This document shows, piece by piece, positions 1,971 through 15,929 of a DNA stretch of 20,221 nt. Numbering within the stretch: the stretch's first letter is position 1; each line of letters starts with the position of its first letter. The translations under genes were made by a program, and so were the position numbers. Under the pieces are notes generated by a model that worked only from the letters and a program-made list of their open reading frames with translations, did not search any database and was not told the DNA's origin. The DNA comes from Candidatus Achromatium palustre (lineage in GTDB: Bacteria > Pseudomonadota > Gammaproteobacteria > Chromatiales > Chromatiaceae): NCBI GenBank assembly GCA_001044195.1, contig LFCU01000241.1, forward strand, positions 1-20,221, read 5' to 3'.

Positions 1971-2219
1971 TTAACTATATTCTAAAACCGTATCCCACTG
2001 TTCAGAACTAAGCAAAGAATCTTCAAGATCAGATGAGTCTGTGTCATCGAAAAACACGGATGTATCCTCTCTAATTTCTGCATAAATGACTTTTAATCGT
2101 TCACGCTCAAAATCAAATTCGGATCGTATTGCATCTACATCAACTGGTAGTGTTGCATTGATATTGTTTTTTAACCAATTTTCAATATCTAGGCTGCGTT
2201 TTGTCCATTTATCAATCAT
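1971..2219 (-). CDS. Small acidic protein (82 aa), paralog of the ORF at 3153-3407. It is translationally coupled to the upstream MotB-like gene.
   Basis: Its start overlaps the MotB-like stop by ATGA (2216-2219). The first 30 aa are identical to the paralog, and the acidic S/T-rich tail DDTDSSDLEDSLL is conserved. No TM helix or signal peptide is present. Confidence 0.6.
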   Translation of the reverse strand: MIDKWTKRSLDIENWLKNNINATLPVDVDAIRSEFDFERERLKVIYAEIREDTSVFFDDTDSSDLEDSLLSSEQWDTVLEYS

Positions 2220-3109
2220 TGCGTTGTTCCCAAGGCTTTTTGGGGCTTATTCCTTTTGGTGAAGCGTAGTTCAATGCGTCTTCGAGAAGGGACGTTTTTA
2301 TTTTGGGCACCCTGCAATATGTTATTGTTTGGGGAAATAAGTTGTGATCCTGAGTAAACTCTAAAAACAAGTTGTTTTAAGCGTGGATCATTTGATCTTG
2401 CAAATATATTAAACAATGCTGCCGCAACAGATAAGGCGCGAGCTAGTCCGAGATCTGCATTTGAGCCAATTTGTAGTTGTCTAATCACGTTTGCTGATGT
2501 AGGTCCGAATTGAAAATTTCTTAATTTGGTATCCAGATTGGATGCTCTAGATCTTACTGGTATTCCATCAGTATGCCCTATAACTTCTATTACTTCGATT
2601 GGATAATCTTTAATGATAGCTAATATTTTGGGAACTATGTTTTGTTCTAAACGGCCTTCAAATTCAGGAGATACATTACTACTTCCAGATGTAAAAACAT
2701 AACCTGAAGCTTCTTGTAATGGAAATACTAAGGGCTTATCTGGCCTACGTTTTAATTCACCTTCTAAACCTTTAATGCGAGCTGTGTAATGGGATCGATA
2801 GGTTTGCAGTCTTTCTACTAATCTTTCTAATTCAGCCTCTAAAACTTGAATACGGTTTGCGCTATCTGTACGATTTGTTCTACAAGTTTGCAGTGTTTGT
2901 TCTAAATTTTCAATATTTTGTGAAGAATTTAATTGATGTCGAGTTAATTCTATTCCTAATCTTTTTATCTCTTGTTTTAATTTTTGCAGTATACCAAAAT
3001 GCATGGTATTATCCACCACCCATAAAATCAATACTAACATCAATATTGCTAAAATTAGATCTGTTAATGATGGCCAAAATGACACTTCATCTTTCTGTTT
3101 GTTAAACAT
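2216..3109 (-). CDS. MotB/ZorB-like stator subunit (about 298 aa). It has an N-terminal TM helix with a conserved Asp, an approximately 90-aa coiled-coil linker, and a C-terminal OmpA-like peptidoglycan-binding domain.
   Basis: The TM segment is LTDLILAILMLVLILW, with the D-x12-W spacing seen in MotB. The OmpA motif GHTDG...NxxLGLARALSVAAAL is present. The start was chosen at the internal Met (MFNKQKDEVSFWPS, ATG at 3109) by homology with the N-terminus of the paralog (MFRKYQEEVSFWPS). The 339-aa track ORF from 3235 would overlap the upstream small ORF. Confidence 0.75.
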   Translation of the reverse strand: MFNKQKDEVSFWPSLTDLILAILMLVLILWVVDNTMHFGILQKLKQEIKRLGIELTRHQLNSSQNIENLEQTLQTCRTNRTDSANRIQVLEAELERLVERLQTYRSHYTARIKGLEGELKRRPDKPLVFPLQEASGYVFTSGSSNVSPEFEGRLEQNIVPKILAIIKDYPIEVIEVIGHTDGIPVRSRASNLDTKLRNFQFGPTSANVIRQLQIGSNADLGLARALSVAAALFNIFARSNDPRLKQLVFRVYSGSQLISPNNNILQGAQNKNVPSRRRIELRFTKRNKPQKALGTTQ

Positions 3110-3152
3110 AAACAAGCATCCTGAATTGTTGTACCTAAAAATAGATAGCTTA

Positions 3153-3407
3153 TTACTGTAATTTGTATTCCAGTACCATGTCCCACTGTTCAGGATTAAG
3201 CAAAGAATCTTCAAGATCAGATGAATCGGTATCATCTAAAAAAACAGCCATATCACCTTCAATTGTTACATAAATATTTTCTAAACGTTCTAATTCGGTA
3301 TCAAATACATATCGCATTGCATCTACATCAACTGGTAGTGTTGCATTGATATTGTTTTTTAACCAATTTTCAATATCTAGGCTGCGTTTTGTCCATTTAT
3401 CAATCAT
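3153..3407 (-). CDS. Small acidic protein (84 aa), paralog of 1971-2219. It is translationally coupled to the upstream MotB-like gene.
   Basis: There is an ATGA start/stop overlap with 3404-4045. The N-terminal 30 aa are identical to the paralog, and the acidic tail DDTDSSDLEDSLL is conserved. Confidence 0.6.
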   Translation of the reverse strand: MIDKWTKRSLDIENWLKNNINATLPVDVDAMRYVFDTELERLENIYVTIEGDMAVFLDDTDSSDLEDSLLNPEQWDMVLEYKLQ

Positions 3408-4045
3408 TGCGTTGTTCCCAATACTGTTTGGGGTTTATTCCTTTTGGTGAAGCGTAGTTCAATGCGTCTTCGAGAAGGGACGTTTTTATTTTGGGCACCC
3501 TGCAATATGTTATTGTTTGGGGAAATAAGTTGTGATCCTGAGTAAACTCTAAAAACAAGTTGTTTTAAGCGTGGATCATTTGATCTTGCAAATATATTAA
3601 ACAATGCTGCCGCAACAGATAAGGCGCGGGCTAGTCCAAGATCTGCATTTGAGCCAATTTGTAGTTGTCTAATCACGTTTGCTGATGTAGGTCCGAATTG
3701 AAAATTTCTTAATTTGGTATCCAGATTGGATGCTCTAGATCTTACTGGTATTCCATCAGTATGCCCTATAACTTCTATTACTTCGATTGGATAATCTTTA
3801 ATGATAGCTAATATTTTGGGAACTATGTTTTGTTCTAAACGGCCTTCAAATTCAGGAGATACATTACTACTTCCAGATGTAAAAACATAACCTGAAGCTT
3901 CTTGTAATGGAAATACTAAGGGCTTATCTGGCCGGCGCATTGAAATATCTACTATCCATAAAATCAACACTAATAACAATACTGCTAAAATTAAATCTGT
4001 TAATGAGGGCCAAAATGATACTTCTTCTTGGTATTTACGAAACAT
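3404..4045 (-). CDS. MotB/ZorB-like stator subunit, short form (213 aa). The TM helix is joined directly to the OmpA-like domain, so it lacks the coiled-coil linker of its paralog.
   Basis: The TM segment is LTDLILAVLLLVLILW. The OmpA-like domain is nearly 100 percent identical to that of the paralog. The RRPDKPLVF junction follows immediately after the TM helix. Confidence 0.75.
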   Translation of the reverse strand: MFRKYQEEVSFWPSLTDLILAVLLLVLILWIVDISMRRPDKPLVFPLQEASGYVFTSGSSNVSPEFEGRLEQNIVPKILAIIKDYPIEVIEVIGHTDGIPVRSRASNLDTKLRNFQFGPTSANVIRQLQIGSNADLGLARALSVAAALFNIFARSNDPRLKQLVFRVYSGSQLISPNNNILQGAQNKNVPSRRRIELRFTKRNKPQTVLGTTQ

Positions 4046-4150
4046 AATGCTTTAATGAAATTATTAAGAATCACTATTAAATGATTTAATAGTTTGATTT
4101 ATAAATGTTTGTATATAATATTATATGGTTTATTGTATGAAATGTAGGTA

Positions 4151-5962
4151 CTACCCATTCCACCACTTAGATAATTTTGAACTTGAAACTTTAGTATTAG
4201 TCTGGTTTAGTACGTTAGAGAGATTTGCAATAGATACCTGCAATAACTTCATGTCATCATGGAAATTTTTATCGTATTGATGAGATGGGTTAGCACTACT
4301 TAACAATGAACCAATTTTTGTTTGCAATTCCGAAGCCATAGCATTTGCAAATACCGTTGGTAAATTTTGTAGAAGAGTTTGATGTAATTGTTGTTGAGTT
4401 GATATTGCGGTCTTAATTGCGCTGGAAAAATTGCGAAACTCGGTAATAAGGCTGGTATTATGTTGACTAGAAACGTTTGTACTATTTGCTAATGAATCAA
4501 GCTCCGCTTGTAACTTAGAAGTTATGGCATCTGCAATTATCATTGGTAGATCTTCTAACAGATTTTTAGTGTTTGCGGCTTCTGTCGTGACTGTATTTGA
4601 AAAATTGCTAAATTCAGTATTAAAGTTCGTTAGTTCCGTTTTCCATTGTACTGTAATGCTGTTTAACAATTTGCCATATTTATCAATGTTGCTAGTTGTT
4701 ACAGCTAAACTATCAATAACAGTTTGCAAGCTTTTAACTGAATTGGTTGCTTCCGTAGCAGTATCTAAGACAGATTTGGTTAAATTAGCTGTCTCCTGGT
4801 GCAAGATAAACAATTCTTTGTTTTGGGCAGTTGAAAGCTCTTGCATTTTTACTACAGCATCTTGTAATTGGGCATAACGCTGTTCTGCTGGACTAACCGC
4901 CTGATATAGTTTATCCATAGCTTGCAAAAAAGGGGCATTTGAGGCAACACTTTTATCGAAACGATTAGCTGCGGTATTAAGAGTATTTGCCGCTTGCCCT
5001 ATACTCTGTATAATTGGTGACAAAGCTGCTGCAAATTGGGTCATAGCATCTGTTGTATTTTGGGCTGATTTATTAATGGCTGCTATGGCACTATTGTTGG
5101 TATTATTGATGTTCTTAGCAGAAGTGTCAAAAGCATCAGACAATAGTTCACTTCCTATTGAAATTGTATCCATAAATTCAGTTATAGATTTATTAGTATT
5201 TGCAGCTAATTGGTTAATACCCGTTATGGCACTATCGCTTGTATTATTGATGTTTGTAGTATAAGTATCAAAGGCTTCAGATATTTCTTGGCTTTTTGTT
5301 GAAATAGTATCACCAAGTTTAGAGATAGATTCTTCGGTTTTTTCTGATTGAGTTTCTATTATTTTAATTTTATTGCTATCATTCCATGGAATTAAAACTT
5401 TGCTGGCAAAATTTACAAAATTTCGTGCAGCTATATTGTATGTAGGATCAAGCAATCCGAAGCGAATAGCCTGTAATATCAGCGTTGCAATGACTCCAAA
5501 GATGCTAGGCCAAAACGCACTAGTAAGTGCCTCTTGTAATTGTTGATAGGTATCTTGATTTATTCCCTCTGGAACAGCATAATGTAACGAAAATAAGGTA
5601 CCAGCGATACCACATAGCAACACTACTGAAATGGCATATCTTCTAATACCAATAAGAATCTTAATCCATAACTCATTTGGCTCAATAAGATCAATAGCCG
5701 CTTCTGGTGCATGATCAGTTGCCAAAATTCGATTAAATGCTGGTCTTAATGGGTGATTTTTTCCTATTTTGCGATCTAGCCAAGCTCGCATATTAGTAGG
5801 ATCAGTATTTCGTAAATCATATTCAAGATCTGCAATAACTTTGGACTGAGTATACCAAAACCGGATCTCCAAAATAAAACCAATAATAGCTGAAATACTT
5901 AAGATAGCTATTATTCCTATAAATATTATAGAAGCTGTAGACATGTTTAAAAGTATAGACAT
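4151..5962 (-). CDS. MotA/ExbB/TolQ-like membrane protein with a roughly 420-aa low-complexity helical C-terminal tail (603 aa). It looks like a ZorA-like motor subunit.
   Basis: It has three predicted TM helices in ExbB-like topology: residues 10-32, then around 100-125 (LLCGIAGTLFSL), then around 150-175 (IFGVIATLILQAIRFGL). The tail from about residue 190 to 603 is rich in N/T/S/A/Q, contains internal imperfect repeats (for example SxAFDTxxxNINNT), and has no TM. The gene sits directly upstream of two MotB-like genes and directly downstream of the kinase, with a 27-bp gap. Confidence 0.7.
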   Translation of the reverse strand: MSILLNMSTASIIFIGIIAILSISAIIGFILEIRFWYTQSKVIADLEYDLRNTDPTNMRAWLDRKIGKNHPLRPAFNRILATDHAPEAAIDLIEPNELWIKILIGIRRYAISVVLLCGIAGTLFSLHYAVPEGINQDTYQQLQEALTSAFWPSIFGVIATLILQAIRFGLLDPTYNIAARNFVNFASKVLIPWNDSNKIKIIETQSEKTEESISKLGDTISTKSQEISEAFDTYTTNINNTSDSAITGINQLAANTNKSITEFMDTISIGSELLSDAFDTSAKNINNTNNSAIAAINKSAQNTTDAMTQFAAALSPIIQSIGQAANTLNTAANRFDKSVASNAPFLQAMDKLYQAVSPAEQRYAQLQDAVVKMQELSTAQNKELFILHQETANLTKSVLDTATEATNSVKSLQTVIDSLAVTTSNIDKYGKLLNSITVQWKTELTNFNTEFSNFSNTVTTEAANTKNLLEDLPMIIADAITSKLQAELDSLANSTNVSSQHNTSLITEFRNFSSAIKTAISTQQQLHQTLLQNLPTVFANAMASELQTKIGSLLSSANPSHQYDKNFHDDMKLLQVSIANLSNVLNQTNTKVSSSKLSKWWNG

Positions 5963-5989
5963 GTTTATAAATAATCCCTAATTTATTAA

Positions 5990-7354
5990 TTATATCGAAT
6001 TTGTCATTGGTTCAATAGATACTCGCCCGTGTGCAAAGTCAAACGCCCTTACTCCTACAAACCGAAATGCGTGATTACGTTTACATCGTAGTTGCCTCCC
6101 AGAAGCAAGATGCACAATCCAGGTATCATTGCTTAAATTTTTGAGAGTCATCCCACGTTCTGGTGTCTCTTTTATTTCGGCCATTGGACGCTTAAATTGA
6201 AATTCCTGATTATCCAAATGGTGCTCATAGAGTTTGCGTCCATGAGTCGCTAAAATTTTAGTACCATTAGAAAATTTTAAATACCAACGTTTATTTGGAT
6301 GCTTGGTATCGCAAAATAGACATGTACAATTCTGATCGGAGATAAAAAAACGTTGGTGACAATTAGAGCATTCCGCCATACATTCCAACGCTTGCCAAAA
6401 TTCTCTAGCCCAAGTTGCCGCTGAATGGCGTTTTGTAGGATTTTTAAGCCCAATGGTGAATACTTGTTGAAATCTAGTTTGCATGGACTTTGGCAAATGA
6501 GCAAATGGAATACCATTAGTAGTAAAACGATTCCTACTATCTGTAGGATGTTCAGTAAAGATAGCACTAGTACCAAGTCCCTCATCTTCAGTCATGTAAT
6601 CCAAATTAAAATTCGGATCAACATCGCCTATAAATGGATGCCTAAACATGACTAAATAAAACAGTAGTACGGCCAAACTATGTCGATCCGTTTCCGCAGA
6701 TGGATGTGGATGTTGTGCTGTTATAAGCTCTGGTGCTCTAAAACCAGGAGTTCCAGCTACTTTTACTGGCAGATAGTTACTATTCCCACATGCAAGATTA
6801 TCGCAATCAATAAGACATATACTACCATCAGAGGTATTAAAAAATACATTACCCAAAGATAAATCGCAATGAGTCATCCCATGGCTATGAATCATCCGTA
6901 ACGCTTGCGAAAGGTAGAAGCCTGCTAATAAAAAATGATGATATTTATCATAATTGCTAAGTACAGAACGCAGGGCTGCACTTATAAATGGATTGGGTTG
7001 GTCATAAGGATCTGTAAGTAATGAATCGTGATTCAGTGGTTTACCTATCGCCAATTCCATTAGTACGCCAAATTCATTAGCAGAACTATATATAGCTCTG
7101 GGAAAGCAAACTTGGGCTTGGGGTAAAGTCCTGGCAATTTCTTTGGCAACATCGATGATTGTTTCTAGGCGTTCTTGCTGTTGATATAGTTCTGCTTGAG
7201 CGGGTAGTTTTTTAAATAATTTAAGGGCCATTTTATGGCTATCATGAGTGCGCTGGACTTGCCAGACATCAGCCTGTTGTCCAGAGCCTAGTGCAGCTTT
7301 ATACTTATATTCTTCGCCGTTAGTTGTAGTAAAGTTGGAGTTTTCTGTAGGCAT
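5990..7354 (-). CDS. Hanks-type Ser/Thr protein kinase (454 aa) with a C-terminal Cys-rich zinc-ribbon and an additional uncharacterised roughly 100-aa domain
   Basis: Kinase motifs are present: a G-loop LGSGQQADVW, the lysine in ALKLF, the catalytic loop HCDLSLGNV, a DFG-like DCD, and GTPGFRAPE. Cys clusters include CMAECSNCH and CTCLFCDTKH. Confidence 0.85.
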   Translation of the reverse strand: MPTENSNFTTTNGEEYKYKAALGSGQQADVWQVQRTHDSHKMALKLFKKLPAQAELYQQQERLETIIDVAKEIARTLPQAQVCFPRAIYSSANEFGVLMELAIGKPLNHDSLLTDPYDQPNPFISAALRSVLSNYDKYHHFLLAGFYLSQALRMIHSHGMTHCDLSLGNVFFNTSDGSICLIDCDNLACGNSNYLPVKVAGTPGFRAPELITAQHPHPSAETDRHSLAVLLFYLVMFRHPFIGDVDPNFNLDYMTEDEGLGTSAIFTEHPTDSRNRFTTNGIPFAHLPKSMQTRFQQVFTIGLKNPTKRHSAATWAREFWQALECMAECSNCHQRFFISDQNCTCLFCDTKHPNKRWYLKFSNGTKILATHGRKLYEHHLDNQEFQFKRPMAEIKETPERGMTLKNLSNDTWIVHLASGRQLRCKRNHAFRFVGVRAFDFAHGRVSIEPMTNSI

Positions 7355-7366
7355 GATATTAATAGG

Positions 7367-8272
7367 TTACAGATTGTAAAATACAGCTACCAGTGTTTTA
7401 TCATCATCAGAAAATTTATGTTCTTCCCAGTAATTACAATATGCTGTGGCATATTCTTCTAAAGCTACTGGATCATCTAAGCATTGTTTTAATTTTGGCC
7501 ATATAGCACTAAAATATAAGTTGGGATCGCCAATACTTTCACTCAGCCCATCGGTCATAAGGCAGAAACCTACACTATCTTTGTATTCAGTTATTCCAGG
7601 ACTTGACTCTGCAAAACCACGTTGCCATTCAGTGTTGGTTAACGGTCGAACTTCATTGACAAAGCCTTCACGTATATTTTCAGTTAAAAGCTGTGCTGCA
7701 ACTTTATCATCTGGTCTTGAAGAGATTTTATATATAGCACCATCTCCAACGATTGCTGCCCAGTAACCTTCAGAGTTTAAATATAGTAGTAATGCTGTTG
7801 TGGCGTATTCTGTTAAGTAGCCATCTACTAATGTTTGTGAAGATGTTTTTATATCCTGGGTATCATCTTTATTTTTATGACCAGTTTTATTTTGCTCGTT
7901 ATCTTCTTGGCATAATATTACAAACTTATCTCTAGCGTCAGTAAAGTAGTCTTTCAATTGATTGCTATTAAGAATACTTGTGCTTGCACCACTAAATACT
8001 TGACCCAGGGCAGTACAAGCACATTCAGCTCCTTTACGAGAGCGTGATCTGGTACTTACTCCATCTGCTACGGTTAGAGTCAGTGATTTAATATCATCTA
8101 CTTTTGTAGGTGTAGGCCAGTAAGCAGTAAAATCTTGGCATTCTGTACTTTGATCCACATGAGCTTTACCACGCCAAGAAAACGTTACAATTGCTATACT
8201 TTTGCCAGATATGTTGTAACGTTTAATTTTTGGAGGTATGCTAAAATGCTCAGAATTTAAATAAGCAGTCAT
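7367..8272 (-). CDS. PP2C-family Ser/Thr phosphatase (301 aa), the TerY-P phosphatase component
   Basis: Metal-binding Asp/Gly motifs are present: VADGVS, VGDGAIY and LMTDGLSE. It lies 8 bp after the vWA gene and 12 bp before the kinase gene. Confidence 0.8.
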   Translation of the reverse strand: MTAYLNSEHFSIPPKIKRYNISGKSIAIVTFSWRGKAHVDQSTECQDFTAYWPTPTKVDDIKSLTLTVADGVSTRSRSRKGAECACTALGQVFSGASTSILNSNQLKDYFTDARDKFVILCQEDNEQNKTGHKNKDDTQDIKTSSQTLVDGYLTEYATTALLLYLNSEGYWAAIVGDGAIYKISSRPDDKVAAQLLTENIREGFVNEVRPLTNTEWQRGFAESSPGITEYKDSVGFCLMTDGLSESIGDPNLYFSAIWPKLKQCLDDPVALEEYATAYCNYWEEHKFSDDDKTLVAVFYNL

Positions 8273-8279
8273 AGTGCTT

Positions 8280-8954
8280 TTAATTAACTAACTGAGTTCC
8301 AGGAATCTCACTTATGGGTCGTTTTTCTGAAATTTCTACTGTCAATGTCCTTAAATTTTTAAAAAAGCCACTGATAGTAGCTTGATCTTTCAGTCTAACA
8401 ATGTGCGATTTTTCTCTACCCTTATGGTAAAAGGCAGTTAAAACCGAATCGTTTATATCATCACCGGCTCCAGCAATTACTCTAATTCCAGCGACTCTAC
8501 CTGATGGTCTAGTGCCTATAAGAGGATTTTCATTCATAAGCTGTAATTGATCTTTCCAAGCTTGTTCGGAGCAATTAGGGTTACCATCGGTGATAAATAC
8601 AAATAATGGTTCTTTGCCTTTTTTTAATTCGTTTTTATTACGTTCTACTAATGCTAATACTTCTGCTAAACCTGCATCAAGGTTTGTGTATCCTGCTCCC
8701 ACTTCAATTTGAGGAATATCTATAGAGCCAATAGGTTGATGTTCAATGATAGTCTCAGCAATATCGCTAAAAGTTATCACCGATATAAAGACAGAATCAC
8801 GGGTATCTTCATTGCTTTGCAATTCTTCGATGTAATCACGAATGCCATTATTAGCCTGTTGTATACCAACTGGCTCCATACTATAAGATACGTCTACTAA
8901 CAATATAATGGGTATGGGTTTACGTGCAGTTGCACCATCTGGTATTTCAATCAT
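8280..8954 (-). CDS. TerY-like von Willebrand factor A domain protein (224 aa) with a MIDAS motif. It is the first gene of the operon.
   Basis: The MIDAS motif DxSxS is present as ILLVDVSYSM, with downstream FITDG. An AGGAA ribosome-binding site lies about 10 nt upstream of the ATG. An 876-bp AT-rich non-coding region lies upstream. Confidence 0.85.
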   Translation of the reverse strand: MIEIPDGATARKPIPIILLVDVSYSMEPVGIQQANNGIRDYIEELQSNEDTRDSVFISVITFSDIAETIIEHQPIGSIDIPQIEVGAGYTNLDAGLAEVLALVERNKNELKKGKEPLFVFITDGNPNCSEQAWKDQLQLMNENPLIGTRPSGRVAGIRVIAGAGDDINDSVLTAFYHKGREKSHIVRLKDQATISGFFKNLRTLTVEISEKRPISEIPGTQLVN

Positions 8955-9011
8955 GCTTTATTTATTCCTAATATATTACGACAAATAGTGGATTTCATTT
9001 TGTTTCTACTT

Positions 9012-9041
9012 ATTCTACATATTAATAGGCACAAAGATCAA
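9012..9041 (-). promoter_or_regulatory. Candidate sigma70-type promoter for the TerY-P/ZorAB-like operon (TTGATC-N18-TAGAAT on the minus strand)
   Basis: A -35-like TTGATC (reverse complement at 9036-9041) and a -10-like TAGAAT (reverse complement at 9012-9017) are separated by an 18-nt spacer, about 60 nt upstream of the vWA start codon. This was found by eye only. Confidence 0.25.
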
Positions 9042-9101
9042 CTACTTTCCAATTGCACTATAAAGGTCAAATTGTATTTGACACTATCTATATCAATTTT
9101 A

Positions 9102-9130
9102 GGGCATCCTTCATTTCTCAGTGTACAATT
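9102..9130 (-). repeat. Copy of the dispersed bipartite X/Y motif (reverse complement: AATTGTACACTGAG-AAATGAAGGATGCC)
   Basis: Its X unit matches AAATGAAGGATGCC at 9539-9552, and its organisation matches 1881-1907 and 15189-15225. Confidence 0.5.
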
Positions 9131-9400
9131 TATAGATTGGTTATATTTTTAGCATTCTTTATCAATACCTCGATGCTCAAAAGTTAGAAAACGCTTATAT
9201 ACTTAGATATGTTGACATTACATATTTTAATTAGATTTTTACTTGATTAGCTCTACTCAATATTGTATACGTTCTATCCTGTAGAAGCCTTATAGCTTAA
9301 GTAATTAAAATATTACCTAATACTAACTTTTGAACATCAAGAATGCTGATGCGAATATCCTATTTCCAATTCAAAAAGTGGGCATCATTCACCAACACCC

Positions 9401-9433
9401 AAAAGTAGTTTACACTTTAAGAAGGATGACGAC
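9401..9433 (-). repeat. Y-unit (AAAGTGTAAACTACTTT, reverse complement) plus a degenerate X-like unit (GAAGGATGAC). It forms a 17-bp inverted repeat with 9556-9572.
   Basis: AAAGTAGTTTACACTTT at 9401-9417 is the exact reverse complement of AAAGTGTAAACTACTTT at 9556-9572. Confidence 0.5.
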
Positions 9434-9520
9434 AAGTAAAATAAATTTTTTCTTAACTTGAAACATCTGATATATAAACACTTTTTAGAAATAAAAAATA
9501 TTTTCAATTTTTAATGTCCT

Positions 9521-9597
9521 TAAAAAGTGTTAACCGACAAATGAAGGATGCCAAAAAGTGTAAACTACTTTGTAGACGGAAATAAAGAATGCCACGA
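9521..9597 (+). repeat. Cluster of X/Y motif units: a Y-like unit, X (CAAATGAAGGATGCC), Y (AAAAAGTGTAAACTACTTTG), then an X-like unit (AAATAAAGAATGCC)
   Basis: The units were read directly from the sequence. They sit in the 876-bp intergenic region between the vWA gene and the second SiaB-like gene. Confidence 0.5.
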
Positions 9598-9720
9598 TTA
9601 AAATTGGATATGATTTCTTCCCCAATTATAACTTTATGCTTATTAAACAGGGAGAGGTTTTTAAATAATATCTAATGTTACAAATTTAATTTGGAAAAGT
9701 AGAATTTCTTAACAGAACAA

Positions 9721-9786
9721 TATAATGCGCATTAAACTTGATATGCACCAACGGGATGATATCACATTACTTGGTGTACGTATTTA
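9721..9786 (+). pseudogene. Relic 3' end of a PP2C/SpoIIE phosphatase gene (encodes MRIKLDMHQRDDITLLGVRI-stop). It is an imperfect direct repeat of 1771-1847.
   Basis: It is about 85 percent nucleotide identical to the last roughly 25 codons of the phosphatase gene at 855-1847 (IRIQLEMHQQDELQRDDITLLGVRV-stop). It carries a 15-nt in-frame deletion flanked by CCAAC microhomology. The final 35 nt are 31/35 identical. Confidence 0.6.
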
Positions 9787-9831
9787 AATATAGATAAAGA
9801 TTACCATAAACTTAAAATAGAGACAAAAATT

Positions 9832-10386
9832 ATGGATAATTTCGATGTTTTCGAATTTTATCAATTTATGCAAAGACAAAATGTGATTCTATCCTTCAAG
9901 GGAGAAATGTCACAGCAAATACTGGTTAATATTGGTGATTTATTGAAAGAAAAATTAGCATCTGAAGATACGGAAAAACAGGTCACTAAAAAAGTATTCT
10001 TCATTTTCGTTGAATTGGCGCAAAATATTCACCGTTATTCCGCTGATCGAGGCATTGAAGATAAAAAACGAGCAGGTACAGGTGTGTTATTTGTTAAAGA
10101 ATCTGCCAATTATTTCACAATTTTTGCTGGCAATAGAGTTGCTCCTCTGGAAGCAAAAGTGACCACCGAGCAATGTTTGGCAATTAGCCGATTAACGCCA
10201 AATGAACTGAAGCTATATTATAAAGAACAACTAAAACAACCGCGTGAAGATGAAACCTCTGGTGCTGCTGGTCTTGGACTTATTAGTATCGTCCGTAAAG
10301 CCGAAAACCCAATTGTTGCGTATACTATAGACATTGATACCAATGAAACTTTTTTGGTACTATCAGTTCAAGTGAATAAGGAATAA
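9832..10386 (+). CDS. SiaB/DUF6272-like histidine-kinase-like ATPase (partner-switch Ser/Thr kinase, 184 aa)
   Basis: The sequence has a GHKL-type N-box-like stretch (ELAQNIHRY), a G1-like stretch (TGVLFV) and a G2-box (GAAGLGLI). It is followed 4 nt later by a SiaC-like gene. Confidence 0.8.
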   Translation: MDNFDVFEFYQFMQRQNVILSFKGEMSQQILVNIGDLLKEKLASEDTEKQVTKKVFFIFVELAQNIHRYSADRGIEDKKRAGTGVLFVKESANYFTIFAGNRVAPLEAKVTTEQCLAISRLTPNELKLYYKEQLKQPREDETSGAAGLGLISIVRKAENPIVAYTIDIDTNETFLVLSVQVNKE

Positions 10387-10390
10387 ACCA

Positions 10391-10780
10391 ATGCAAGATC
10401 TAAAGATTGTTGGCACAAAAGATACATTAACCGTAAATTTTATAGTAGAATCTGGTATCTTGACATTGAAAGGAGCCTCTTATCCAGAAAATCCTGTTAA
10501 TTTTTTTGATCCGCTCTATACATGGATTACAACATATACACAAGAAATCCATAATACATTAACCGTGAATATGACGATTAATTATGTGAATACTAGTTCA
10601 TCTAAATGCTTACTTGATTTTTTAGAATTACTGGAAAATTATCATAATTCAGGCGGAAAGATTACGCTTAATTGGTACTATGAAGAGGATGATGAAGACA
10701 TGTTAGAGTGTGGTGAAGAATTGTGCGAAGATCTAAAGCTGCCCTACTCAATGATTCCAATTGTTGGGAATCCTGAATAA
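10391..10780 (+). CDS. SiaC-like DUF1987 partner-switch phospho-protein (129 aa)
   Basis: It has the LKGASYPEN motif and an acidic C-terminus, and is paralogous to 341-730. Confidence 0.8.
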   Translation: MQDLKIVGTKDTLTVNFIVESGILTLKGASYPENPVNFFDPLYTWITTYTQEIHNTLTVNMTINYVNTSSSKCLLDFLELLENYHNSGGKITLNWYYEEDDEDMLECGEELCEDLKLPYSMIPIVGNPE

Positions 10781-11244: not shown

Positions 11245-14200
11245 TTATTGCTTTATAAGTTTTTCGAGTTTTTCTACCTCATTCTTTGCGTTAGTATGTC
11301 CCTGAGCAGCAGCCTTTTGGTACCACTTTAGAGCCTCTTTGTAATCTTGAGTGACTCCGTCGCCATTGTCATACATAACGCCAATATTGTATTGCGCATC
11401 AGCATCCCCTTGAGCAGCAGCCTTTTGATACCACTTTAGAGCCTCTTTGTAATCTTGAGGTACTCCTTGGCCATTGTCATACATAAATCCAATCTGTAAT
11501 TGTGCATTAGCATTCCCTCTAGCAGCGGCCTTTTGAAACCACTTTAGAGCTTCTTTGTAATCTTGAGATACGCCTTGGCCATTTGCATACATAAATCCAA
11601 TATAAATTTGAGCATCAGTATGTCCCTGAGCAGCAGCCTTTTGATACCACTTTAGAGCCTCTTTGTAGCTTTGATGGACTCCTTGACCATTGTAATACAT
11701 AAGACCAATATTGTATTGCGCACCAACATTCCCTTGAGCAGCGGCCTTGCGATACCAATTTAGAGCCTTTTTATAATCTTTAGGCACTCCTTGTCCATTT
11801 GCATACATAACACCAATATTGTATTGCGCATACGCATCACCTTGAGCAGCAGCTTTTTGAAACCATTTTAATGCTTGATTGTAATCTTGAGGTATACCCT
11901 TGCCACTAAGGTATATATCACCTATCCCATTTTGTGCATCGGCATTACCTTGATATGCGGCTTTATTCCACCACTCTAATGCATCCGCGTAGTTTTGATA
12001 TATTCCTTGGCCACTGTAGTACATAAAACCAATATTGTATTGCGCATCAGCATTCCCTTGAGCAGCGGCCTTGTGATACCACTTTAGTGCCTCTTTATAG
12101 TCTTGAGGTACGCCTTGACCGTTGTGATACATAACACCAATATTGTATTGCGCATTAACATACCCTTGAGCAGCGGCCTTTTGATACCACTTTAGAGCCT
12201 CTTTGTAATTTTGAGGTACTCCTTGGCCATTGTAATACATAAGACCAATATTGGATTGCGCACCAACATTCCCTTGAGCAGCAGCCTTTTGATACCACTT
12301 TAGAGCCTCTTTGTAATTTTGAGGTACTCCTTTACCAATGTTATACAGGGCACCAATATTGCTTTGTGCTTTAGCATTCCCTTGAGCAGCAGCCTTTTGG
12401 TACCACTTTAGAGCCTCTTTGTAATCTTGAGATACGCCTTGGCCATTTGCATACATAACACCTATCCCATTTTGTGCATCGGCATTACCTTGAGCAGCGG
12501 CCTTGTGATACCACTTTAGTGCCTCTTTATAGTCTTGAGGTACGCCTTGACCGTTGTGATACATAACACCAATATTGTATTGCGCATTAACATACCCTTG
12601 AGCAGCGGCCTTTTGATACCACTTTAGAGCCTCTTTGTAATTTTGAGGTACTCCTTGGCCATTGTAATACATAAGACCAATATTGGATTGCGCACCAACA
12701 TTCCCTTGAGCAGCGGCCTTGCTCCACAATTTGAATGCCTCTTTGTAGCTTTGAGGAACACCTTTACCCAAAGCGTACATCAATCCAATATTGCTTTGTG
12801 CTGTAGCATTCCCTTGAGCAGCGGCCTTGCGATACCAATTTAGAGCCTCTTTGTAATCTTGAGATACGCCTTGGCCATTTGCATACATAAATCCAATCTG
12901 TAATTGTACATTAGCATTCCCTTGAGCAACAGCCTTTTTATACCACTTTAGAGCCTCTTTGTAATTTTGAGGTACACCTTGGCCATTGTAATACAGCCCA
13001 CCAATATTGTATTGCGCACCAACATGCCCTTGAGCAGCAGCCTTTTGGTACCACTTTAGAGCCTCTTTGTAATTTTGAGGTACTCCTTGGCCATTGTGGT
13101 ACATCCAACCAATATTGTTTTGAGCAGATTTAAGTCCTTGAGCAGCAGCTTTGTGGAACCATTTCAAGGCTTTTTTGTAATTTTGAGTTACATTTTTGCC
13201 AAGATAATAAGTAATGCCAATATTAAATTGCGCATTAGCATATCCTTGAGCTGCTGCTTTATGAAACCATTTTAGAGCCTTCTTAGGATCTTTAGGTATA
13301 CCTTTACCATCACGATACATAACACCAATATTGTGTTGCGCCTCAACATGACCTTGAGCAGCAGCTTTGCGATACCAATTTAGAGCTTCTTTATAATCTT
13401 TAGATACACCTTGGCCATGGTGGTACATCCAGCCAACACCGACTTGCGCAATAGCATCACCTTGAGCAGCAGCTTTGTGGAACCATTTCAAGGCTTTTTT
13501 GTAATTTTGAGGTACACCTTGGCCATTGTAATACAGGCTACCAATATTGTATTGCGCACCAACATCTCCTTGAGCTGCTGCTTTATGAAACCATCTAAGA
13601 GCTTCTTTGTAGTCTTTGGTTACGCCTTCACCATTGCGGTACACCAGACCAATATTGTTTTGTGCTCTAGCATTTCCTTGGGCTGCTGCTTTGTGATACC
13701 ATTTAAGAGCTTCTTTGTAATCTTTGGCTACGCCTTCACCTGAACTATAAGCAATGCCGACAGCATTTTGTCCGTTACTATTATTTTGCGCAGCAGACAG
13801 ACGAAACCATTTCAATGCCTCTTTAGAATTCTGGGCTACGCCTAGCCCCATAGCATATATTTTACCAAGCTCATATTGAGCTTCAGCATCACCGTGAGCT
13901 GCTGCTTTGCGATATTTTTTTAGAGCCGCTGCTTGATCTTGGGGAGAACTTGAAGAATTATCCTCATGTTTCGGAGCCTCTAACTTTGCTAGTTTTAATT
14001 CCATACTCGCTGTTGTGGCCTTAAACTGTTGCTGCATCTGTTGCATACGTGATTCTAACTGCTGACGCTGTTGGCGTTCGGCAGCTAGTTGAGATTGTAA
14101 TCTAGCAACTTGCGGATTTTCTACAACTGGTGGGCTGGAGAGATACAGGGCATCTTCTAAAGAGGAAGAATCCCAAGGGATTTGAAAGCCTCTGGTCTCT

Positions 14201-15090
14201 TGCTTTACATCCTTACGTACCTTACGCAGAACAAACTGAATATCCCCTGGAGTATTGATATATTTGAGGAGATGCTTGGTAAAAGTACCATTACGACCAT
14301 GACCATCCTCAGCTACACTATTAGGACTCGTTGCATAGACTAATAGAGTATCCGATGGAGTATTCATCCTTGCCAAACCTGAACGCATTCTCCGGCCCTT
14401 GACACCACGGCTTAAAAATGGATTATTACGACAGGCATCTAAAAAAACTATTTTAGTTTTGGCCGCTTTAATCTTAATCAATAATTGACTGGCACGAATA
14501 GCTTGGCGTTCGATTTGATCTTCACGCTTAAAATACGCATCTACTGGTAATAGATAATTTTCGCCCTTGACCTGAACACCATGTCCTGAATAATAGACTA
14601 AAGCTATATCACCAGCCTGTAATTGCAGACCAAAATTATGGATCGCATCATCCATCTCTAACAACTTGGCATCTTTGAGCAATGCAACTTTAAAACCTAA
14701 ACCTTGCAAGGCATTGCTCATATCCTCGGCATCGTTAGCTGGATTTAATAATGGCGGTAAATCACTCGGCATGGCACTGTAGGCTGAATTACCGATTACC
14801 AGAGCCATACGGCGACTGGTAACTCTTCCTAATGCTTTAGTTTGGGTAGGTTTGGTAACAGGAGGCTTATTGGCTATAGCACCAGAATCACCAGTATTTC
14901 TGGTAGCTATTTTGGTAGCTATTGGAGTAGATTGTTTAGGCTTGCTAGCAACTATAGTACTAGGTTTTTTAGTATCTTTAGTAAACAGATTATTGTTGCA
15001 GCCAGTAATCAATAGAGTTAGGCCGATGCTACATAGCCATAATGGCCATGCAGACAACTGGAGAGTTTTAATTAGTTGTTTTAGAAACAT
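11245..15090 (-). CDS. Large lipoprotein (1281 aa) with four parts: signal peptide and lipobox, a caspase-like peptidase C14 domain, a coiled-coil, and about 25 Sel1-like repeats
   Basis: The N-terminus MFLKQ...LLITGCNNN ends in an LITGC lipobox. The caspase His/Cys dyad is present in YYSGHGVQ and VFLDACRNNPF. A Q/R-rich coiled-coil occupies about residues 320-390. A 36-aa Sel1 consensus (AQYNIGVMYxNGQGVPQDYKEALKWYQKAAAQGN) is repeated through to the C-terminus. Confidence 0.85.
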   Translation of the reverse strand: MFLKQLIKTLQLSAWPLWLCSIGLTLLITGCNNNLFTKDTKKPSTIVASKPKQSTPIATKIATRNTGDSGAIANKPPVTKPTQTKALGRVTSRRMALVIGNSAYSAMPSDLPPLLNPANDAEDMSNALQGLGFKVALLKDAKLLEMDDAIHNFGLQLQAGDIALVYYSGHGVQVKGENYLLPVDAYFKREDQIERQAIRASQLLIKIKAAKTKIVFLDACRNNPFLSRGVKGRRMRSGLARMNTPSDTLLVYATSPNSVAEDGHGRNGTFTKHLLKYINTPGDIQFVLRKVRKDVKQETRGFQIPWDSSSLEDALYLSSPPVVENPQVARLQSQLAAERQQRQQLESRMQQMQQQFKATTASMELKLAKLEAPKHEDNSSSSPQDQAAALKKYRKAAAHGDAEAQYELGKIYAMGLGVAQNSKEALKWFRLSAAQNNSNGQNAVGIAYSSGEGVAKDYKEALKWYHKAAAQGNARAQNNIGLVYRNGEGVTKDYKEALRWFHKAAAQGDVGAQYNIGSLYYNGQGVPQNYKKALKWFHKAAAQGDAIAQVGVGWMYHHGQGVSKDYKEALNWYRKAAAQGHVEAQHNIGVMYRDGKGIPKDPKKALKWFHKAAAQGYANAQFNIGITYYLGKNVTQNYKKALKWFHKAAAQGLKSAQNNIGWMYHNGQGVPQNYKEALKWYQKAAAQGHVGAQYNIGGLYYNGQGVPQNYKEALKWYKKAVAQGNANVQLQIGFMYANGQGVSQDYKEALNWYRKAAAQGNATAQSNIGLMYALGKGVPQSYKEAFKLWSKAAAQGNVGAQSNIGLMYYNGQGVPQNYKEALKWYQKAAAQGYVNAQYNIGVMYHNGQGVPQDYKEALKWYHKAAAQGNADAQNGIGVMYANGQGVSQDYKEALKWYQKAAAQGNAKAQSNIGALYNIGKGVPQNYKEALKWYQKAAAQGNVGAQSNIGLMYYNGQGVPQNYKEALKWYQKAAAQGYVNAQYNIGVMYHNGQGVPQDYKEALKWYHKAAAQGNADAQYNIGFMYYSGQGIYQNYADALEWWNKAAYQGNADAQNGIGDIYLSGKGIPQDYNQALKWFQKAAAQGDAYAQYNIGVMYANGQGVPKDYKKALNWYRKAAAQGNVGAQYNIGLMYYNGQGVHQSYKEALKWYQKAAAQGHTDAQIYIGFMYANGQGVSQDYKEALKWFQKAAARGNANAQLQIGFMYDNGQGVPQDYKEALKWYQKAAAQGDADAQYNIGVMYDNGDGVTQDYKEALKWYQKAAAQGHTNAKNEVEKLEKLIKQ
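11270..13910. repeat. 108-bp tandem DNA repeat of about 24 units encoding the Sel1 repeats, with higher-order near-identical 432-bp (4-unit) duplications
   Basis: For example, 12049-12290 is near-identical to 12481-12722 (offset 432). The protein shows a 4-repeat block duplicated almost verbatim (NVGAQSNIGLMYYNGQGVPQNYKEALKWYQKAAAQGYVNAQYNIGVMYHNGQGVPQDYKEALKWYHKAAAQGNADAQ occurs twice). Confidence 0.85.
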
Positions 15091-15398: not shown

Positions 15399-15794
15399 TT
15401 AGACAGGTTCCACAACCACTAATTCAATATCGCCATTCTCTAGCACTTTTTCTTCCTCAATAATCAACCCCTGTTCTGCTACCTGTTTTTTGATTGCCAA
15501 ATGTGCGTAAACACGATTTACATCCTGCATAAATTCTTCTTCCTGAATTTTAGTAGTTCGTTTAATACCCCACCAATCAGTACAAACGGCGTAAGTGTTA
15601 TCTTCTTGACGTTGAAAACCAATGCTATATCTCCCACCAGTGTCGACTACAATCTGGCCGAGTTCAGTATTGTCTTGATAGCCATAGATTGGTAAATCTT
15701 CACCAGTCTGAAATTCATATTCTAATTGACGTAAAGTCTCCTCTAATAGTATTTGGTCGGTAATTTGGGTTTTAACTTGAGAAAAATGAGACAT
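15399..15794 (-). CDS. DUF1257/Ycf35-like small protein (132 aa from the internal start MSHFSQVKTQI...)
   Basis: From memory, the N-terminus MSHFSxxKTQIxD resembles the Ycf35/DUF1257 family found in cyanobacteria and plastids. An AGGAA ribosome-binding site lies about 9 nt upstream of the ATG at 15794. The longer 153-aa ORF from 15860 lacks a ribosome-binding site and adds a non-conserved extension. Confidence 0.55.
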   Translation of the reverse strand: MSHFSQVKTQITDQILLEETLRQLEYEFQTGEDLPIYGYQDNTELGQIVVDTGGRYSIGFQRQEDNTYAVCTDWWGIKRTTKIQEEEFMQDVNRVYAHLAIKKQVAEQGLIIEEEKVLENGDIELVVVEPV

Positions 15795-15929
15795 ATTAGG
15801 GTTCCTAAAAAATAATTTAAATGTATTATACTCGACTATCCAGTTTTTTTGACTTGACAAATTTGTAGGGCGGGAGAACGAAGTGATCCAGCCTTCTATA
15901 TAAGTTTACTATTTTGCAATAATGTTGGA

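Follow-up and report, generated by a model that had tools for sequence, protein, structure and literature searches.

A TerY-P-type phospho-switch trio encoded with a Zorya-like membrane stator in Candidatus Achromatium palustre: a candidate envelope-sensing defence cassette

The DNA analysed here is a stretch of 20,221 nucleotides from Candidatus Achromatium palustre (contig LFCU01000241.1, positions 1 to 20,221 of the forward strand), which is referred to as the window throughout. According to the listing of its open reading frames (ORFs), eight co-directional genes lie on the minus strand within positions 1971-8954. Read in their own direction, they encode a TerY-like vWA protein, a PP2C phosphatase, a Hanks-type Ser/Thr kinase, a membrane protein with a long cytoplasmic tail (A subunit), and two successive pairs consisting of a MotB-like protein (B subunit) and a small acidic protein (Table 1). 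That this cassette is composed of a TerY-P trio, a Zorya-like inner-membrane stator and an acidic protein of about 80 aa, which is translationally coupled to B, is held with high confidence, and it is considered hardly less probable that its six genes (the duplicated pair counted once) function as an integrated system.

All eight ORFs were found at the places given in a preliminary description of the window. The junctions of the cassette have spacers of 7, 12, 27, 105 and 43 nt together with two 4-nt ATGA overlaps. Of the spacings given in the preliminary description, 12, 27, 105 and 43 and the two overlaps were reproduced; its value of 8 has to read 7, its second value of 43 is wrong, and its list is one entry too long, as eight genes have seven junctions. 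For the 297-aa gene the mechanical ORF extends to 3235, and the length of 297 aa is that of the annotation in the public record.

Table 1 Features of the cassette and of its surroundings (positions refer to the window)
Feature	Position	Strand	Remarks
TerY-like vWA protein, first gene of the cassette	8280-8954	-	224 aa; MIDAS (metal ion-dependent adhesion site) motif DVSYSM intact
PP2C-family Ser/Thr phosphatase	7367-8272	-	301 aa; Pfam PP2C_2
Hanks-type Ser/Thr kinase with C-terminal zinc ribbon and beta-rich C-terminal domain	5990-7354	-	454 aa
A subunit, membrane protein with tail	4151-5962	-	603 aa
A subunit, N-terminal 200 aa, three-transmembrane domain of predicted TolQ/ExbB/ZorA fold	5363-5962	-	AlphaFold2, Foldseek
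A subunit, predicted segments (residues)			TM1 ~9-33; small helical cytoplasmic domain 34-97; TM2 98-129; TM3 ~151-175
A subunit, cytoplasmic tail, residues ~200-603	4151-5362	-	Ala/Ser/Thr/Asn/Gln-rich; predicted all alpha-helical
B subunit, short paralogue, MotB-like	3404-4045	-	213 aa; transmembrane Asp17 and OmpA-type domain
Small acidic protein, copy 1	3153-3407	-	84 aa; start overlaps stop of the B subunit (ATGA)
B subunit, long paralogue, MotB-like	2216-3109	-	297 aa; matches the form of the orthologues
Small acidic protein, copy 2	1971-2219	-	82 aa; ATGA overlap with long B subunit
Tandem duplication of the B-subunit/small-protein pair	1971-4045	-	copies 4045-3153 and 3109-1971
SiaC, left of cassette	341-730	+
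SpoIIE/PP2C phosphatase, left of cassette	855-1847	+
DUF6272 protein, right of cassette	9832-10386	+
Second SiaC paralogue, right of cassette	10391-10780	+
N-terminal caspase (Peptidase_C14, 2.6e-46) with ~24 Sel1 repeats	11245-15090	-	1281 aa
DUF1257 protein	15399-15860	-
Vault-protein homologue	16046-18562	+	838 aa

The first three genes were assigned by family profiles. The 224-aa protein matched Pfam VWA (5.9e-10) and VWA_2 (5.4e-8), and DVSYSM occupies its residues 21-26. A tblastn search of this protein against plasmids matched 2290 records, 25 rows of which were sampled for their annotation: the top place was held by a 'TerY-C metal binding domain-containing' or a 'VWA domain-containing' protein in 25/25, and 24/25 were enterobacterial plasmids. 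Identity to the TerY paralogues of ter-operon plasmids, the best matches (E 1e-10), was 26-28% over 83-92% of the protein, and on the one ter plasmid that was inspected (NZ_CP074367) the TerY paralogues are followed by a PP2C and a kinase gene, in the order seen in the cassette. The 301-aa protein matched Pfam PP2C_2 at 8.5e-24. For the 454-aa protein, matches were obtained to Pfam Pkinase (1.3e-17) and to the PADLOC models mad6 (3e-16) and PD-T4-6 (4e-13); an alignment of the kinases (A7) showed invariant K45, HCDLSxxN (162-169), DxDN (183-186) and GTPGF..PE as well as four invariant cysteines of the zinc ribbon (C329/C332/C345/C348, CxxC...CxxC, residues 329-348), and the beta-rich C-terminal domain is conserved as well. 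No other gene of the cassette is as well conserved as that of the kinase (53-65% identity). Neither the vWA protein nor the PP2C phosphatase was matched by PADLOC; the canonical TerY and PP2C proteins of a ter plasmid, used as a control, likewise remained without a match, so that this negative result is uninformative. TerY-like vWA protein, PP2C phosphatase and Hanks kinase with zinc ribbon had all been named as such from the ORF translations, and these assignments hold.

The name TerY-P was reportedly given to the triad by Anantharaman, Iyer and Aravind in 2012, and TerY-P-like defence modules are said to have been described by Gao et al. in 2020. Judged by its sequences, the trio of the cassette has all structural features of a TerY-P triad, which is defined as the trio of vWA protein, PP2C phosphatase and kinase (Bell et al., PMC11090510). 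According to the same source, TerY-P-like modules, the kinase of which carries a fused OB fold, act as anti-phage systems by themselves, and triads of TerY-P type accompany CoCoNuT restriction systems (type II and III-A) as add-ons (PMC11090510).

Direct sequence assignment of the A subunit was tried and rejected, as Pfam, NCBIfam and PDB returned just coiled-coil noise (spike HR1, alpha-synuclein, SMC); a ZorA match was absent from the NCBIfam results, and no stator was found in PDB with either the full-length or the N-terminal profile. The PADLOC models of ZorA gave weak matches (2e-5 to 8e-4) that are confined to residues ~197-493, and these were dismissed as evidence for the transmembrane domain on account of their location in the low-complexity tail. 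Homologues of the A subunit form 11 clusters at 90% identity among 5.8 billion proteins. In their alignment the N-terminal 200 aa are extremely conserved, with the motifs RRYAISVVLLCGIAGTLFSL and LQPALANAFWPSIFGVIATL, and the tail is more variable. A profile of the N-terminal part, run against 1.84 billion representatives, recovered 39 proteins of 326-684 aa (and a few fragments) with ~20% identity, which share LLxxGxxGT and AFxxS..G...T. Two of these distant members, P0021 and P0037, matched the TM2-TM3 part of PADLOC ZorA1 at 2e-6, thereby providing a transitive sequence link from the A subunit to ZorA.

Structures were predicted with AlphaFold2 (AF2) as monomer models. For residues 1-200, with the distant relatives included in the alignment, the pLDDT (predicted local distance difference test) was 93 and the predicted template-modelling score (pTM) 0.84; in the model, TM1 is one long helix, the cytoplasmic part has three short helices, and TM2 and TM3 form a hairpin. 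Essentially all top matches of this model in a Foldseek search of PDB were TolQ, ExbB and ZorA, the best being TolQ (E 6e-4, TM-score 0.56-0.63). On this basis, and not by Pfam, the initial assignment of the 603-aa protein as MotA/ExbB-like with three transmembrane helices is supported. According to the models, the A subunit is a tailed protein of TolQ/ExbB/ZorA fold, from a branch that escapes the current models of ZorA and MotA_ExbB; it is not a strict member of the ZorA family and represents a distinct, distant branch.

The tail of the A subunit comprises ~430 residues after TM3 (~340 aa in orthologues), and in the full-length model helices span residues 136-587, interrupted by four short breaks. 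Its most conserved part is the Pro-containing motif RFDKSVASNAPFLQAMDKLYQAVSPAE at residues 334-360 (window 4884-4964), the consensus of which is RFDKSVASNxPFLxAMxxLYxAxSPAE and which is also given as RFDKSVASNAPFL...SPAE. A C-terminal Trp, W600 (4160-4162), lies in the basic tip and is conserved across the wider family. Those distant A members that are linked to tubulin operons (see below) keep the C-terminal Trp and a recognisable form of the mid-tail motif, F..s.g..SPf...L; since both are kept in distant branches, they are features of the stator family and not specific to a partner. The mid-tail motif may be a hinge or a docking site common to the whole family.

The B subunits were recognised by sequence. 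The 213-aa protein matched PADLOC ZorB1 (2.9e-8), the MotB family of NCBIfam (2.4e-6) and Pfam OmpA (9e-5, below the cut-off), and the 297-aa protein matched ZorB1 (5.7e-8, profile positions 10-219 of 232) and OmpA (2.4e-4, again below the Pfam cut-off), so that both remain within the MotB/OmpA family in which they had been placed. They begin with MF(R/N)K...EVSFWPSLTDLILAVLLLVLILW, and their transmembrane segment FWPSLTDLILAVLLLVLILW with an invariant Asp is followed by GHTD...NADLGLARALSV. This residue, Asp17, is invariant in an alignment of the two window copies and two orthologues (A3). GHTD and NADLGLARALSV match the peptidoglycan-binding signature of OmpA and MotB; GHTD and NxxLGxxRAxxV are both present in the B subunits. 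The best PDB sequence match of the B profile (E 0.009, transmembrane segment aligned) was a chain of 8vvi, listed as a type II ZorAB complex, where it bears the name 'Motility protein B-like N-terminal domain-containing protein'. The family is large, with 1555 matches, many of them from non-flagellated cyanobacteria; 'flagellar motor protein MotB' and 'OmpA-like' are frequent annotations among these.

The two B paralogues differ in architecture. A coiled-coil linker of ~85 aa separates the transmembrane helix from the OmpA-type domain in the long one, which across its whole length shares 44-50% identity with the lone B gene of other cassettes; all orthologues carry a linker of 85-140 aa. In the short paralogue the OmpA-type domain is joined directly to the transmembrane helix, and this linker-free fusion, a ZorB-like geometry, was seen in the 213-aa protein alone. 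The small acidic proteins gave no family match in Pfam, PADLOC or NCBIfam. In every complete cassette an orthologue (78-92 aa) is encoded directly 3' of B; the residues W5 and D67 are invariant, LL(T/S)xEQW is conserved, and copies 1 and 2 of the window share 78% identity.

The two B/small-protein pairs are direct repeats with an offset of 1188 nt. Their identity is ~99% over ~600 bp (3938-3330 versus 2750-2142), a block that takes in the peptidoglycan-binding domain along with the beginning of the small gene; elsewhere, in the transmembrane segment and the remainder of the small gene, it is 73-86%. Such a mosaic suggests gene conversion. Since all other loci carry a single B gene, with linker, and a single small gene, the ancestral cassette had six genes and, on the sequences compared, the duplication is specific to this lineage. 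Two MotB-like and two small proteins had been counted before: the number is right, and the second pair is a tandem duplicate instead of further kinds of component.

The gene order of the cassette is kept in at least 10 other contigs with differing genomic contexts, mainly from Verrucomicrobia. The order vWA-PP2C-kinase-A-B-small protein was identical in the loci L001-L003 and L006-L009, where L001 is a 154-kb contig and L006-L009 are four loci from metagenome-assembled genomes (MAGs) of Verrucomicrobia, and in two JGI contigs that are listed without DNA. Two further loci, L004 and L005, are incomplete (short contig, or insertion sequence (IS) inserted), with the genes present in the same order: in L004, whose A subunit is ~22% identical in its N-terminal domain, the triad is found upstream together with an inserted IS; the upstream ORF of L005 is partial and corresponds to the C-terminus of the kinase (E 1e-16 at 31% identity), after which come A, B and a gene of 92 aa. 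The linkage thus persists in two loci at ~22% identity of the A-subunit N-terminus. Orthologues of the vWA protein were present in every cassette locus, and those of the PP2C phosphatase occupied the same position across all of them (E 1e-74 to 1e-95). Apparent gene splits were noted in two loci: the vWA gene of L008 (130-922) is divided into two ORFs of 166 and 89 aa, and in L009 (11499-12651) the B N-terminus lies in a separate 92-aa ORF overlapping an ORF of 320 aa. These are frameshifts, either from decay or from errors of MAG assembly.

Given the distribution of the loci, it is highly improbable that a TerY-P triad and an unrelated MotAB-like pair stand side by side by chance, with an operon boundary in between. 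Such a boundary could be sought in the 105-nt gap at 4046-4150, which is the largest spacer of the cluster, and stator pairs of the A/B family also occur without the triad. Against it, the six genes follow each other in the same order in the at least 10 contigs with differing flanks, the spacers between kinase and A and between A and B measure 13-28 nt in the other loci with called genes, the linkage is retained down to the low A identity given above, and no minus-strand terminator-like site was found in the gap. A promoter scan of the window gave what is expected by chance and is, together with the lack of a terminator in the gap, uninformative on operon structure. With the same order and unrelated flanks at each locus, the cassette is a mobile unit and chance adjacency is practically excluded; at each of the close homologue loci that were retrieved, the co-location of triad and stator on which the preliminary description had made its proposal depend was found, with unchanged gene order.

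The genomic neighbourhoods bear on what the cassette is for. The L001 cassette is adjoined by PDDEXK, TIR and DUF2971 genes and a TIR_2 gene is present in another contig, IS66 and Y1 transposase genes flank the cassette of L002, the kinase resembles, by sequence, the defence kinases mad6 and PD-T4-6, and TerY-P-like modules are anti-phage on their own or, as triads, attached to CoCoNuT (PMC11090510). These are hints, and on balance they tilt slightly towards a role in defence. Alternatively, the cassette could be a non-immune device for envelope homeostasis or membrane remodelling, i.e. a wall-anchored motor tuned by Ser/Thr phosphorylation, akin to Tol-Pal or to what FtsZl1 operons have been proposed to do. 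The stator has distant relatives in FtsZl1-tubulin/OmpA operons, for which membrane remodelling has been proposed (PMC2875224), the genes next to the cassette in the Verrucomicrobia loci are of housekeeping type, the SiaC, SpoIIE and DUF6272 partner-switching genes that flank the cassette in the window have a signalling flavour, and many of the more than 1500 B homologues belong to non-flagellated cyanobacteria. Housekeeping would, however, predict vertical conservation, and the cassette is patchy and rare, with differing insertion sites and transposases nearby; TIR and PDDEXK genes are found close to it in two loci, and the tubulin and kinase-PP2C-vWA themes have been re-interpreted as parts of conflict systems (PMC7159879). 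A non-immune device is accordingly rated as unlikely.

The stator was also found with partners other than the triad. The distant A homologues P0020, P0028 and P0019 are encoded in operons of, in this order, a protein of ~255 aa, a Tubulin_2 protein (~990 aa), an OmpA protein (660-690 aa), A and B; such FtsZl1/large-OmpA operons with A and B homologues were located at L010 814-8769, L011 1013-8779 and L017 2-3494. The partners listed for FtsZl1 operons by Makarova and Koonin (2010) are vWA and OmpA-like proteins, protein kinases and unassigned membrane proteins (PMC2875224). The unassigned membrane protein and the gene downstream of it appear to be a tailed stator pair. Kaur et al. (2020) described tubulin and kinase (zinc ribbon and beta-rich)/PP2C/vWA as non-overlapping themes of one class of GAP1-N2 GTPase conflict systems (PMC7159879), and these themes mirror the partner modules seen around the stator. 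The term 'MotA' has zero occurrences in both papers, and a MotA/ExbB-like component is mentioned in neither. In L012 (5146-8924), from a gammaproteobacterial MAG, a fusion of a response-regulator receiver with Schlafen/AlbA_2 lies directly upstream of an A/B pair; in the collection, the B protein of this locus has index entries in 58 blocks, and 24 of the contigs that encode it were examined. The fusion gene looks like a third partner module of the family. A contig of Okeania encodes a B homologue ~1.1 kb downstream of a protein of 486 aa, whose match to the A profile is weak and above the inclusion threshold. The occurrence of one stator family beside differing partners mirrors the modular layout of Zorya.

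Taking these results together, the following working model is proposed. A and B would form an ion-driven A5B2 motor with an anchor in the cell wall, in the manner of other proteins of this fold. Ions would flow when the envelope is disturbed, most plausibly by the entry of a phage, and the tail bundle would thereby be moved; the moved pentameric tail would then recruit or activate the cytoplasmic trio. The metal site of the vWA protein may act as a docking adaptor, its ligand perhaps being, as a speculation, the invariant Asp67 of the small acidic protein; metal sites of vWA domains classically take an acidic side chain from the ligand, which makes this residue a candidate. The kinase would be the output, phosphorylating host or phage proteins and so arresting infection, the PP2C phosphatase would reset the switch, and the kinase switch as a whole would occupy the place of the ZorC/D nucleases of Zorya. 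Kinase as output and PP2C as reset are favoured since the stator is constant and its partners vary, as in Zorya, and since no other effector is encoded. The model is drawn by analogy with other 5:2 motors and with that described for ZorAB, in which an A5B2 complex with a pentameric tail bundle acts as sensor and tail (PMC11946911). To the overall reading, an envelope-sensing A5B2 motor that would be wired to a kinase switch as its output in defence, we assign a probability of about 0.5; the direction of signalling from sensor to kinase, taken by itself, is put forward tentatively, with the odds somewhat against it.

The wiring might also run in reverse: the TerY-P trio would sense, a role that it may also have in CoCoNuT systems and in TerY-P defence on its own, and a phosphorylated A tail or small protein would open the ion path, so that collapse of the membrane potential leads to death or stalling of the cell (abortive infection). 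TerY-P triads, regarded as a switch for regulation, accompany many different partner systems, and TerY-P-like modules can defend alone (PMC11090510). Apart from the trio and the stator, searches of Pfam, PADLOC and NCBIfam revealed no obvious toxic effector in the cassette; the tail of A is rich in Ser/Thr, the acidic Ser patch of the small protein is partly conserved, and the ion-conducting residues (the Asp of B; Thr122, Ser153 and Thr160 of A) are conserved. For Zorya, however, a test of the idea of a depolarising channel led to its rejection, and a sensor role was preferred (PMC11946911). Moreover, a simple pore needs neither a long conserved tail nor a wall anchor, and the pairing of the stator with varied cytoplasmic partners fits a constant sensor with variable output better. 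Reverse wiring is therefore judged improbable, and signalling from the motor to the kinase is retained as the working model.

Several results weigh against the proposed envelope-sensing motor with a kinase output in defence. Pfam gave no match for the 603-aa A subunit, MotA_ExbB included, and the transmembrane part of ZorA in each of the PADLOC models found no direct match in it. The model of residues 1-200 is devoid of beta strands, and beta-sheet elements in the cytoplasmic domain are a mark of ZorA (PMC12505986). The pLDDT of the tail was low (42-55), a value that is expected when a single chain of an oligomeric bundle is modelled. The canonical B subunit of the cassette has its coiled-coil linker of 85-140 aa where ZorB, whose peptidoglycan-binding domain is fused to the transmembrane helix, has none (PMC11946911). 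The Ser of the acidic patch is found in most copies of the small protein, not in all. On the genomic side, the four Verrucomicrobia loci have housekeeping-type neighbours and not defence genes (PSCyt/PSD genes, AcrB, FtsK, FecR), the cassette is rare (4/185,579 species genomes and one further metagenome locus), and among the eight flanking proteins of the window PADLOC detected no known defence system apart from a caspase-like protein. Viral contigs contributed no cassette locus to the search with the A-subunit alignment, and a megablast of the window against plasmids gave no match. An exact-sequence look-up of the vWA protein of the window found no record.

Further observations concern the surroundings of the cassette in the window. 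On both sides lie plus-strand genes of Sia type (Table 1), which were found at no other cassette locus, and a Sia-like signalling locus may have received the cassette by insertion. The 877 bp that precede the vWA gene on its upstream side (8955-9831) are AT-rich (~28-32% GC) with no ORF longer than 54 aa, and Rfam and tRNA scans found neither an Rfam family nor a tRNA in them; this stretch presumably holds the promoter of the cassette. The upstream spacers at the other loci are much shorter. The possibility that the vWA gene is preceded by a conserved seventh gene was considered and discarded: ORFs of 86-88 aa are present in L001 and L002, they are just 26% identical, and the window has none. 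A homopolymer of 11 C (minus-strand reading) at 1938-1948, 23 nt 3' of the stop of the last cassette gene, may be prone to slippage or may have arisen in the assembly. The 1281-aa caspase protein matched PADLOC 'caspase' at 2.8e-10 and is not positionally tied to the cassette in other genomes; it is possibly a conflict-system protein. The 838-aa protein, which adjoins the DUF1257 protein, carries a Major Vault Protein shoulder (2.9e-18) and Vault_3 repeats and is a bacterial vault-protein homologue. A solute-binding protein near the cassette shares 60-65% identity with proteins of Magnetococcales and Chromatiales.

To our knowledge, Zorya is the sole immune system that uses a complex of rotary-motor type as a sensor. 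We know of no input or output for the widespread TerY-P triads, nor of a mechanism that has been established for FtsZl1 operons since 2010. The cassette, as a compact system that joins a Zorya-like stator to a kinase/phosphatase/vWA switch, bears on how the Zorya tail signals to soluble partners, and activation of the motor would be easy to follow through phosphorylation. In a wider sense, tailed 5:2 motors may form a broad, largely unannotated family of wall-anchored envelope sensors with interchangeable outputs, within which the cassette would be a new Zorya-like type of defence with a Ser/Thr phospho-switch as output, and sister branches would drive FtsZl1 tubulin or response-regulator/Schlafen proteins; we consider this generalisation possible, at rather less than even odds. 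If it is true, more than 1500 'MotB-like' and 'OmpA-like' genes of non-flagellated bacteria gain a functional context, and the TerY-P triad and FtsZl1 operons gain a concrete upstream signal. Within the searchable literature, to which the founding TerY-P paper does not belong, no paper couples TerY-P mechanistically with MotA, ZorA or Zorya, and kinase partners are unmentioned in two Zorya structure papers. Within that literature the combination is undescribed, as had been supposed from the ORF translations, and it is improbable that the founding paper lists this neighbourhood.

Compared with known systems, the cassette shares with TerY-P triads the vWA protein with MIDAS, the PP2C phosphatase, the kinase with a C-terminal zinc ribbon, the order vWA-PP2C-kinase and close packing (gaps of 7 and 12 nt). 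It differs in the partner, which is a membrane stator pair instead of ter genes, McrBC/HEPN nucleases or nothing, and, from the validated stand-alone TerY-P-like systems, probably in the C-terminus of the kinase, where these have an OB fold and the cassette kinase a zinc ribbon together with a beta-rich domain. With the FtsZl1 (Tubulin_2) operons it has distant homologues of both A and B in common, whereas no Tubulin_2 match was obtained for any window protein and no tubulin or GTPase gene is present. TolQR, ExbBD and MotAB share the A-subunit fold of 5:2 motors, conserved Gly/Thr motifs in TM2/TM3 and the transmembrane Asp of B, and MotB also the OmpA-type domain after a linker; all three are without the ~430-aa tail of the cassette A subunit. 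In contrast to TolQR and ExbBD, the B subunit carries an OmpA-type and not an ExbD/TolR-type domain, and no gene for TonB, TolA or Pal was found in the window. Unlike in MotAB, the A subunit has three instead of four transmembrane helices and no torque-generating domain, and the window is free of flagellar genes. The cassette is not a flagellar, Tol or Ton motor.

The closest system is Zorya. Both have an A subunit whose membrane domain is, in the cassette by prediction, of the three-transmembrane MotA/ExbB/TolQ fold and continues into a long alpha-helical cytoplasmic tail, and a B subunit with a transmembrane Asp and a peptidoglycan-binding domain. Besides the linker of the canonical B subunit and the failure of ZorA hidden Markov models to detect the A transmembrane domain directly, the cassette differs in the small, all-helical membrane-proximal cytoplasmic domain, in the length of the tail (~340-430 aa versus ~500 in Zorya) and in its partners, which are the upstream vWA/PP2C/kinase trio and the downstream small acidic protein and not ZorC/D/E/F/G. 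PADLOC matched ZorC/ZorD, ZorE and ZorF/ZorG to none of the eight cassette proteins or the eight flanking proteins, in agreement with the initial reading that a ZorC/D/E-like effector is absent. The cassette would thus be most like Zorya in its working, yet it lacks several of the features that define membership of Zorya. Its kinds of component are already known; what appears to be new is a Zorya-like stator hard-wired to a phospho-switch partner.

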